From assembly GCA_965204535.1 (NCBI GenBank), contig CBDBEV010000001.1:2080001-2144000 (forward strand): a stretch of DNA of 64,000 nt, in the 5' to 3' direction. Below the pieces are notes generated by a model. It saw only the letters and a program-made list of their open reading frames with translations. It was not told where the DNA came from and ran no database searches. Origin of the DNA: a bacterium. GTDB lineage: Bacteria > UBA8248. Positions 18,720-18,861 of the stretch are shown here, in pieces; position 1 is the first letter of the stretch; every line of letters begins with the position of its first letter. The position numbers and the translations under genes are program-made.

Positions 18720-18748
18720 AATATATATCACTTCTTGTAAGAAATCAA
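18720..18748 (-). promoter_or_regulatory. Sigma70-like promoter of the mini-ORF/tRNA-like transcript, containing a 12-nt Cas9 target
   Basis: Minus-strand TTGATT-17 nt-TATATT; the spacer includes the complement of TCACTTCTTGTA (18728-18739). Confidence 0.7.
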
Positions 18749-18799
18749 ATATGTAGTGGCAACAGTTGCAAACAAATACCAATTCAACTAGATTACAAT

Positions 18800-18861
18800 T
18801 TATCGTTACAAGGTCACTTCTTGTAGTTGTGAATTGTAACGAGGCGTCGATCAGCTATGGG
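18800..18861 (+). ncRNA. Putative crRNA-like regulatory RNA (26-nt pseudo-spacer + degenerate repeat)
   Basis: 18826-18861 GTTGTGAATTGTAACGAGGCGTCGATCAGCTATGGG is 25/36 identical to the array repeat and complementary to tracrRNA; preceded by a 35-nt GTTG...TACAAT element (18765-18799). Confidence 0.75.

Follow-up and report, generated by a model that had tools for sequence, protein, structure and literature searches.

The DNA considered here, referred to below as the window, is a stretch of 64,000 nucleotides (nt) from a bacterium of the lineage UBA8248 (assembly GCA_965204535.1, contig CBDBEV010000001.1, positions 2,080,001 to 2,144,000), and it contains a CRISPR-Cas locus of type II-C. Between the array and the cas genes of this locus lie a solitary repeat, the orphan repeat, and a small gene on the opposite strand. 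The 12 nt directly upstream of the orphan repeat, TCACTTCTTGTA, occur a second time in the putative promoter of the small gene. We describe the locus, the match and its counterpart in a second species, and weigh the proposal that the orphan unit gives rise to an RNA that would guide Cas9 to this promoter. Positions are those of the window unless another contig or locus is named.

Organization of the CRISPR-Cas locus

Three overlapping open reading frames (ORFs) on the minus strand form a cas9-cas1-cas2 operon. The cas9 gene (20125..23085) encodes a protein of 986 amino acids with the Pfam domains RuvC_III, HNH_4 and Cas9_a, and the products of cas1 (19239..20132) and cas2 (18913..19242), both also on the minus strand, match the Pfam families Cas_Cas1 (E 5.6e-26) and CRISPR_Cas2 (E 2.1e-17). 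The order of the operon, the compact Cas9, the absence of csn2 and cas4, and a predicted trans-activating CRISPR RNA (tracrRNA) with an anti-repeat, 3' hairpins and a terminator place the locus in type II-C. A search of solved structures returned Cas9 chains of 1082-1095 amino acids as the nearest to this protein, including 9ar4, 8jtj, 8uza and 6jdq, the last of which is presumably Nme1Cas9.

The array (17881..18114, plus strand) consists of four repeats of 36 nt and three spacers of 30 nt. Its repeats terminate in a -10-like hexamer (TACAAT or TAAAAT), and one report describes a similar ending for the type II-C repeats with embedded promoters of Neisseria and Campylobacter (PMC5965381).

The orphan repeat (18826..18861, plus strand) resembles the handle of a CRISPR RNA (crRNA). 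Of its 36 positions, 11 deviate from the array repeat, and identity is 76% over the 37-nt reference of repeat family D1. It stands alone: 711 nt separate it from the last repeat of the array, and 4.3 kb lie between it and the anti-repeat. The unit to which it belongs is organized as a unit of the array, with a -10-like hexamer, a short spacer, the repeat, and a hairpin with terminator. The hexamer (18794..18799, plus strand) is TACAAT, as at the end of array repeats, and is a candidate promoter element; it lies 26 nt upstream of the orphan repeat, compared to 30 nt in the array. The 3' tail (18859..18950, plus strand; inverted repeat I3) comprises a hairpin at 18859-18891 and, overlapping the stop codon of cas2, a second, long hairpin with TTTT that resembles a terminator. 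Its fold has a z score of -7.25, and an identical kind of tail follows the last array repeat (families D3, D5).

A 12-nt match between the orphan unit and a promoter-like site

Reading of the sequence and an exact search place TCACTTCTTGTA at 18814..18825, flush with the 5' end of the orphan repeat, and at 18728..18739. Both copies are on the plus strand, and the exact search found no further copy on either strand of the window. We refer to the first as the guide and to the second as the target; they are 86 nt apart. The target lies entirely within the 17-nt spacer of a minus-strand promoter-like site, TTGATT-17-TATATT (18720..18748), which agrees with the consensus at 9 of 12 positions and precedes the small gene. 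The initial annotation had reported a second copy between the -35 and -10 hexamers, with a match that stops after 12 nt, and this description holds: the bases before the two copies are A and G, and those after them are again A and G. Its estimate of chance occurrence likewise agrees with ours, which is ~1.2e-5 per 100 same-strand positions (1.25e-7 per position, at the local base composition).

Of 2000 shuffled versions of 18200-18825, 16 contained any exact direct repeat of at least 12 nt. In the window's own genome the 12-mer has three copies against 0.18 expected, the third of which (C1:175535) differs in its 3' flank. As a control we took the two other solitary repeat units of the same genome (C1:732869 and C2:480311), and a seed match of at least 11 nt elsewhere was found for neither of them. 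We conclude that the 12-nt match is genuine and non-random, and that it is in the correct place and on the correct strand. A short guide matching a promoter site, as in the small CRISPR-associated RNAs (scaRNAs; guides of about 11-15 nt), is present at 12 nt in the window and at 13 nt in the related genome G007 described below.

The two control units carry 4-5 mismatches to the 36-nt repeat and are distant from any cas gene. Their 5' flanks have no match elsewhere in the window's own genome. Single repeat-like matches also occur in other genomes of the genus (G001, G011, G012, G016 and G023).

The tracrRNA and the direction of the crRNAs

The tracrRNA was located by searching the window's own genome with the 3' half of the repeat, which gave a match at 23136-23157 on the minus strand. 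The predicted gene (about 23136..23270, plus strand) lies upstream of cas9 and is divergent from it. It contains the anti-repeat (23136-23172), two conserved hairpins, and a terminator hairpin (23243-23262) followed by a T run; a consensus scan also places plus-strand terminator-like sites at 23243-23262. A promoter-like site, TTGCAA-17-TATTAT (23099..23127, plus strand; one site compared to 0.3 expected in shuffled sequences), is positioned so that the RNA would begin at the anti-repeat. When the region was aligned between four loci (the window and the three closest), it was conserved up to the T run and not past it. By eye, the first hairpin varies in length and loop and keeps a GAAG/CUUC stem. 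The tracrRNA element is found in all seven genomes of the genus that carry the same CRISPR type.

In each of four genomes, the duplex of repeat and anti-repeat is stronger with the crRNA on the plus strand than on the minus strand (-53.1 and -44.1, -54.5 and -49.6, -57.0 and -43.5, and -46.4 and -42.5 kcal/mol). The advantage amounts to 3.9 to 13.5 kcal/mol, and an 8-bp stem adjacent to the guide is formed only with a plus-strand crRNA. The crRNAs are read from the plus strand, toward cas2. The 12-mer therefore takes the seed position of a plus-strand crRNA-like RNA, proximal to the protospacer-adjacent motif (PAM), as had been proposed for it at the outset; the location of the tracrRNA and the duplex energies in all four genomes uphold this geometry. 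It also follows from the plus-strand crRNAs that the hairpin and T run between array and cas2 are the terminator of the array.

Read in the direction of cas9, the DNA of the anti-repeat region (23121-23160) has at its end a perfect TATAAT, and the cas9 start codon follows after ~50 nt. With the tracrRNA promoter-like site nearby on the opposite strand, the control regions of cas9 and the tracrRNA therefore overlap back to back.

Pairing of the orphan repeat with the tracrRNA

Despite its 11 changes, the orphan repeat is predicted to form a duplex with the anti-repeat at -50.3 kcal/mol, compared to -51.4 kcal/mol for the array repeat. This energy was matched by none of 5000 variants with 11 random substitutions, nor by any of another 5000 in which these 11 positions themselves had been mutated. 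The changes at repeat positions 12-16 close an internal loop of the normal duplex, and the change at position 33 mends a C-A mismatch. When folded together with the full tracrRNA, the orphan unit reaches -95.0 kcal/mol and the canonical unit -93.3 kcal/mol, with the same architecture and with the tracrRNA hairpins intact. The orphan repeat had been labeled a degenerate repeat, and we find this label misleading, as the 11 changes keep or improve the pairing with the tracrRNA and do not amount to decay. As in scaRNAs, the repeat part is thus able to pair with the anti-repeat, in silico. Judged from its sequence, the orphan unit has the structural features of an scaRNA or a CreA-like RNA.

Conservation of guide, handle and target in a second species

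A DNA search of 61 related genomes for the small-gene region identified a second genome, G007, of the same genus as the window genome, the Cas9 of which is 73% identical to that of the window. Its locus, which ends in an array of 23 repeats, has the order cas2, orphan repeat, the same 12-mer, the small-gene cassette (inverted relative to the window), the target with the same flank, a cas2 fragment and the array. The guide is the same as in the window and the identity between guide and target extends to 13 nt. G007 also contains a separate 21-nt perfect match to 18728-18748, that is, to the target and the adjacent PAM-side flank AGAAATCAA (18740..18748, plus strand). This flank is identical in G007, and the -35 hexamer is the complement of its final six bases. 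The G007 target lies within TTGATT-17-TAGTAT. Promoter, small gene, guide, orphan repeat and terminator are co-directional in G007, and a scan found no terminator-like site between the promoter and small gene and the orphan unit. The G007 module has no tRNA.

When the two species are aligned, the longest identical run in the cassette is the 21-nt block of -35 and target, which is longer than any identical segment of the coding sequence, the ribosome-binding site or the stem; a run of at least 21 nt arose in 10 of 20000 shuffles. In the orphan unit, the longest identical run is 24 nt, in which a G and the 12-mer are followed by the first 11 nt of the repeat; no run of this length arose in 20000 shuffles. 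The sequence upstream of the guide is unrelated between the species, and one breakpoint of the inversion coincides exactly with the guide's 5' edge.

The small gene and the tRNA-like gene

The putative target gene (18517..18627, minus strand) encodes a very basic protein of 36 amino acids and is preceded by a strong ribosome-binding site, GGAGAAAGGAG. Between the window genome (G000) and G007 it shows 14 synonymous and 8 non-synonymous codon differences, which points to a gene that is translated and under selection. It is enclosed by a long-range stem on the minus strand (inverted repeat I1), the 5' arm of which (18686..18712) pairs across the gene with the 3' arm (18477..18503). The predicted mRNA is strongly structured (fold z -5.95), and a terminator-like site is located downstream of the stop codon. 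The stem arms are conserved in G007; in an unrelated genome, G048, different complementary arms are present instead, and there too a tRNA gene follows the small gene.

No Pfam or NCBIfam family was found for the 36-amino acid protein, and a protein atlas search gave no score of 0.9 or higher. Among 1.84 billion representative proteins it has nine relatives at E <=0.001, for which a cluster look-up returned no informative names. Three of 51 genomes of the phylum gave a match at E <=0.01, namely G000, G007 and, weakly, G017; the latter (E 0.007, within a frame of 133 amino acids) is probably due to chance. In both G000 and G007 the gene is located within the CRISPR locus.

A tRNA-like gene of 90 nt (18351..18440, minus strand) lies in the same direction as the small gene. 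It was found by ARAGORN, scores 52.8 bits with the Rfam tRNA model, and has a long variable arm and the anticodon UGG. Its body is closest to the genome's tRNA-Leu(GAG); however, its acceptor stem contains a C-A mismatch, CCA is not encoded, and a normal tRNA-Pro(UGG) is present elsewhere in the genome. The gene could be a pseudogene, the remnant of an integration site or a misreading tRNA.

The small-gene cassette with its enclosing stem (18477-18712) is rare. An unrelated genome carries it upstream of tRNA-Val (L016 1299-1403), and it is found in different contexts in contigs from sponge metagenomes (runs X4 and X5). The conserved core of the small basic protein reads KPGPKTV.V.PH.RSKP, often with a Cys near each end.

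History and distribution of the module

The junction between array and cas2, with the 3' end of cas2, is duplicated in the window. One copy (18115..18210, plus strand), with a terminator copy and a cas2 3' fragment, adjoins the array and corresponds to the ancestral cas2-array junction (families D3, D5); the other (18862-18957) adjoins the intact cas2, and the two are 81% identical. They flank a piece of 747 bp in which lie the orphan unit and the promoter together with two genes, the small one and the tRNA-like one. In G002 (L001), G014 (L003), G017 (L002), G009 and G015 the array begins ~50 nt after cas2, and a contig from run X5 joins position 18165 to 18913, so that this near relative lacks the 747-bp piece.

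Of 42 family genomes searched, 2 contain the guide followed by the first part of the repeat. A contig from run X13 joins 18805-18836, which includes the guide and the repeat start, to the repeat end and the junction, and gives a weak indication of a third carrier. A further read search of the locus yielded no contig from runs X13 and X15, and from X9 only a partial match of 37 nt. A comparison of the Cas9 with metagenome contigs gave 80 loci at 29-48% identity, none of them close; arrays were present in 38.

Other CRISPR features of the window genome and the genus

A run of ~15 G (17832-17846) adjoins the cas-distal end of the array, and one contig from run X1 has one G fewer. The window's own genome contains a second CRISPR-Cas region (C1:197475-200900). 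There, the end of a transposase-like ORF precedes a tracrRNA/cas9-promoter element that is truncated, after which come cas1 and cas2 of the window's family (the cas2 end being 87% identical) without an array, and then the start of a different cas9-like ORF.

In the G009 array (L123), two stretches ~330 nt apart are mutually reverse complementary (33 nt, 94%); two spacers appear to have been acquired from one site, on opposite strands. The G014 array has a strongly degenerate repeat at its cas-distal end (L003 12896-12931, 13 of 36 mismatches), ~150 nt past the last good repeat, which points to the cas-distal side as the old end of such arrays.

Discussion

On balance, we lean towards a model in which the orphan unit of this type II-C locus produces a crRNA-like RNA, similar to an scaRNA or CreA, that would guide Cas9 to bind the promoter of the small gene without cutting it, and thereby repress that gene. 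In the window, the orphan unit would be transcribed from the TACAAT element, and in G007 by read-through from the targeted promoter. The RNA would then pair with the tracrRNA of the same locus and load into Cas9. Cas9 would bind the 12-13-nt match, with the flank AGAAATCAA inferred to satisfy its PAM, and by analogy with tracr-L of Streptococcus pyogenes and the Francisella scaRNA a pairing of 12-13 nt would lead to binding without cleavage. Located between the -35 and -10 hexamers, the bound Cas9 would block RNA polymerase. The arrangement of promoter, gene, guide and repeat in one direction in G007 would constitute a negative feedback loop; in the window, the promoter faces away from the orphan unit and would read into the small gene and a tRNA-like gene. 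By analogy with the logic of CreTA/CrePA, the module is most likely a cargo gene under the control of Cas9 that serves to report the activity of Cas9 or is dependent on it.

Several observations weigh against this model. The carriers, two genomes and one short contig, are related, and the conservation between them is therefore not independent evidence. The module is absent from five of the seven genomes of the genus with the same CRISPR type, and this, together with the relative represented in run X5, means that it is dispensable. At the level of transcription, a scan did not find a plus-strand promoter upstream of the orphan unit, where only the -10-like hexamer without a -35 is present. The promoter-like site of the small gene is by itself not significant in the scan (one site compared to 1.2 expected in shuffled sequences), and that of G007 falls below the scan threshold, with 8 of 12 consensus matches by hand count. 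At the level of the RNA, part of the guide (6-7 nt) is paired to the bases immediately preceding it, both in the free RNA and in the cofold with tracrRNA, and the tracrRNA fold shows no compensatory base pairs (0 of 32, in four sequences). The orphan repeat of G007 does not show the special compensation seen in the window, with a duplex of -39.6 kcal/mol compared to -54.2 kcal/mol for the canonical repeat.

Two further points of this kind concern the guide and the flank of its target. The motif ACAAGAAG, the complement of the 3' part of the guide, is conserved just 3' of the anti-repeat in seven of seven tracrRNAs, and the complementarity reaches 11 nt in the tracrRNA region of G009. Because of this conserved position, part of the guide may be descended from tracrRNA-like sequence and not have been selected for its match to the promoter. 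We also considered pairing of the guide with the tracrRNA past the anti-repeat, and ruled this out, as such pairing is absent from the cofold. The initial annotation expected AGAAATCA, on the 3' side of the target, to contain the Cas9 PAM, and this expectation did not find support: no protospacers were found, and the conserved part of the flank is the -35 hexamer. As AGAAATCAA coincides with the -35 in this way, its conservation can be explained by the -35 alone. In the window's own genome, none of 78 spacers (from the window, L001 and L003) had a protospacer; the 42 genomes of the family yielded none for the arrays of G014 and G009, and viral contigs gave no match to the 3' 22 nt of any of the three window spacers. 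The G009 array gave a single 34-nt match to phage records (E 0.04), which is longer than a spacer and was taken as chance.

The history of the locus makes it necessary to consider that the unit is a relic. An old cas2-proximal repeat could have been severed from the array when recombination brought in a foreign piece, with the small gene and the tRNA-like gene, and a second cas2 fragment with an array. The 12-mer would then be the remnant of a spacer that had matched the foreign piece, and the 5' part of this spacer would have decayed under selection against self-cleavage. The insert is indeed bounded by duplicated junction, terminator and cas2 3' sequence at 81% identity, the relatives and the run X5 contig retain an uninterrupted junction, other organisms carry the small-gene cassette in different surroundings, and just 2 of the 42 family genomes have the module. 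However, neutral decay fails to explain why tracrRNA pairing is fully kept despite 11 changes (0 of 5000 in both controls). It also leaves unexplained that two species with diverged flanks and an inverted cassette share their longest identical runs at the guide with the start of the handle and at the target block. We think that a relic is a rather unlikely full account, and an origin of this type is compatible with a regulatory function today. The retained pairing would also be expected of a decoy, an orphan RNA that titrates tracrRNA and Cas9 away from the real crRNAs, in the manner of solitary-repeat inhibitors from phages, and for which the promoter match would be secondary. At repeat positions 13-16 its duplex has no internal loop, and its stability equals that of the canonical duplex; for solitary repeat units, binding and inhibition of effectors has been proposed (PMC10120712), and viral scaRNAs and single-guide RNAs are described as sequestering Cas9 (preprint 10.64898/2026.06.01.729453). 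In contrast to those viral RNAs, the orphan unit is part of the host's own locus, next to cas2 and with no recognizable phage, and in G007 the orphan repeat pairs worse than the canonical repeat. A decoy would moreover leave the conserved 12-13-nt identity with the promoter unexplained, and we regard it as very improbable.

The identity itself could have a different basis if the 12-mers were sites for a protein, either the operator of a repressor or the site of a recombinase behind the inversion, and not a guide and its target. The cassette is inverted between G000 and G007 with one breakpoint exactly at the 5' edge of the 12-mer, the two copies in G007 form inverted repeats around the small gene, and CTTCTTGT is also present in the cas9/tracrRNA control region. 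Nevertheless, the layout in the window (direct copies 86 nt apart, with the -35 beside the target) cannot be produced by inversion between the G007 copies, the 747-bp insert holds only the small gene and the tRNA-like gene, with no recombinase or regulator gene in the ORF list, and one copy is always flush with a repeat, for which a protein site has no need. This explanation is in our view highly improbable. Finally, the orphan repeat and its tail could themselves be a plus-strand tracrRNA, with crRNAs from the minus strand and no guide function for the 12-mer. A strong hairpin and T-run terminator do follow on the plus strand, and by hand count five of the seven transitions relative to the repeat would yield G-U pairs. 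Yet five of seven genomes with arrays of working size (for example 38 and 39 repeats) lack such an element, whereas the conserved element upstream of cas9, equipped with a promoter and a terminator of its own, is present in all seven. In every genome the last array repeat is followed by this tail as well, which is therefore the terminator of the array, and the duplex energies favor the opposite orientation in four of four genomes. On account of its absence in five of the seven genomes we rejected the orphan repeat and tail as a tracrRNA; this possibility is scarcely credible.

The model of Cas9-guided repression can be compared with several known systems, for which we follow the sources cited. 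Mini-arrays distinct from tracrRNA occur in ~6% of type II loci, with experimental cases in types II-A and II-B (Shmakov et al., PMC10120712). In Francisella novicida (type II-B), the scaRNA is paired to the tracrRNA and carries a short guide of limited complementarity, with which catalytically active Cas9 represses transcription near the start site in a PAM-dependent manner (summarized in PMC10120712 and PMC13431127). The orphan unit resembles it as a standalone repeat-like RNA with a short guide. In contrast to the Francisella system, which is of type II-B and acts on a distant lipoprotein regulon, the window case is of type II-C and concerns a gene in the locus itself, 86 nt from the guide; its handle is predicted to pair with the tracrRNA without the usual internal loop, and it is known from sequence alone. 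In S. pyogenes (type II-A), tracr-L has a guide of 11-13 nt that directs Cas9 to a promoter without cleavage, in a feedback loop (PMC10120712; 10.64898/2026.06.01.729453). The window guide is not fused to the tracrRNA and lies ~4.3 kb from it, across the cas operon, with the orphan unit downstream of cas2 and the tracrRNA upstream of cas9; its target is a cargo gene, and the 12-mer is absent from the cas9 promoter region, so that the unit is no tracr-L. Cas9-regulating scaRNAs and tracr-L in type II-C have been reported that are all aimed at the cas9 promoter (preprint 10.64898/2026.06.01.729453). The scaRNA of Neisseria meningitidis (type II-C, Nme1Cas9) is reported to act post-transcriptionally, on an mRNA leader (PMC13431127). 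It shares with the orphan unit that it is a CRISPR-associated small RNA in a system with a II-C Cas9, but the match in the window is in promoter DNA, between -35 and -10.

A parallel in logic is found outside type II. In the CRISPR-repressed toxin-antitoxin modules CreTA and CrePA, the cas locus encodes a cr-like RNA with a degenerate or ectopic repeat, and partial complementarity between this RNA and the promoter of a neighboring small gene brings the effector there (PMC9458426; PMC10097628). Regulation of the Cre type, including CreR, has been described for type I and type V-A (PMC12737573; 10.1101/2024.01.05.574328). Here too, the gene for a cr-like RNA lies beside a small gene in the cas locus, with a partial match to its promoter. 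The effector is different: CreTA and CrePA have been described for the type I Cascade and CreR for Cas12a, whereas the module in the window would use Cas9 with a tracrRNA, and is absent from most relatives. Guided repression of a cargo gene by Cas9 inside a type II locus was not found in the full-text literature searched, supplements and subscription papers aside.

The parallel can be taken one step further, although we consider this extension unlikely. The 36-amino acid protein might be a growth-arresting toxin that is silenced by the complex of Cas9, tracrRNA and orphan RNA, which would make the module the Cas9 counterpart of CreTA/CrePA. If so, the co-transcribed tRNA-like gene, with its leucine-like body and proline anticodon, could misread proline codons and add to the toxicity. 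The loss of cas9 or the tracrRNA, or an anti-CRISPR that blocks DNA binding, would release the toxin and stop the cell, and the module would be the first addiction or anti-anti-CRISPR module of a type II system.

The model of Cas9-guided repression has implications that extend beyond this locus. The orphan handle is a natural crRNA handle that is predicted to pair with tracrRNA without the usual internal loop, which is relevant to guide design. The system is compact, with one Cas9, one tracrRNA, an orphan unit of ~150 nt and one promoter, and it comes in two natural versions with opposite orientation of the cassette. A cargo gene run by Cas9 in its own locus would join the established regulation by Cas9 of its own promoter and of a virulence regulon with the established repression of adjacent toxins by Cascade, of the CreTA type, and would suggest that type II loci can carry effector-dependent "guard" genes.

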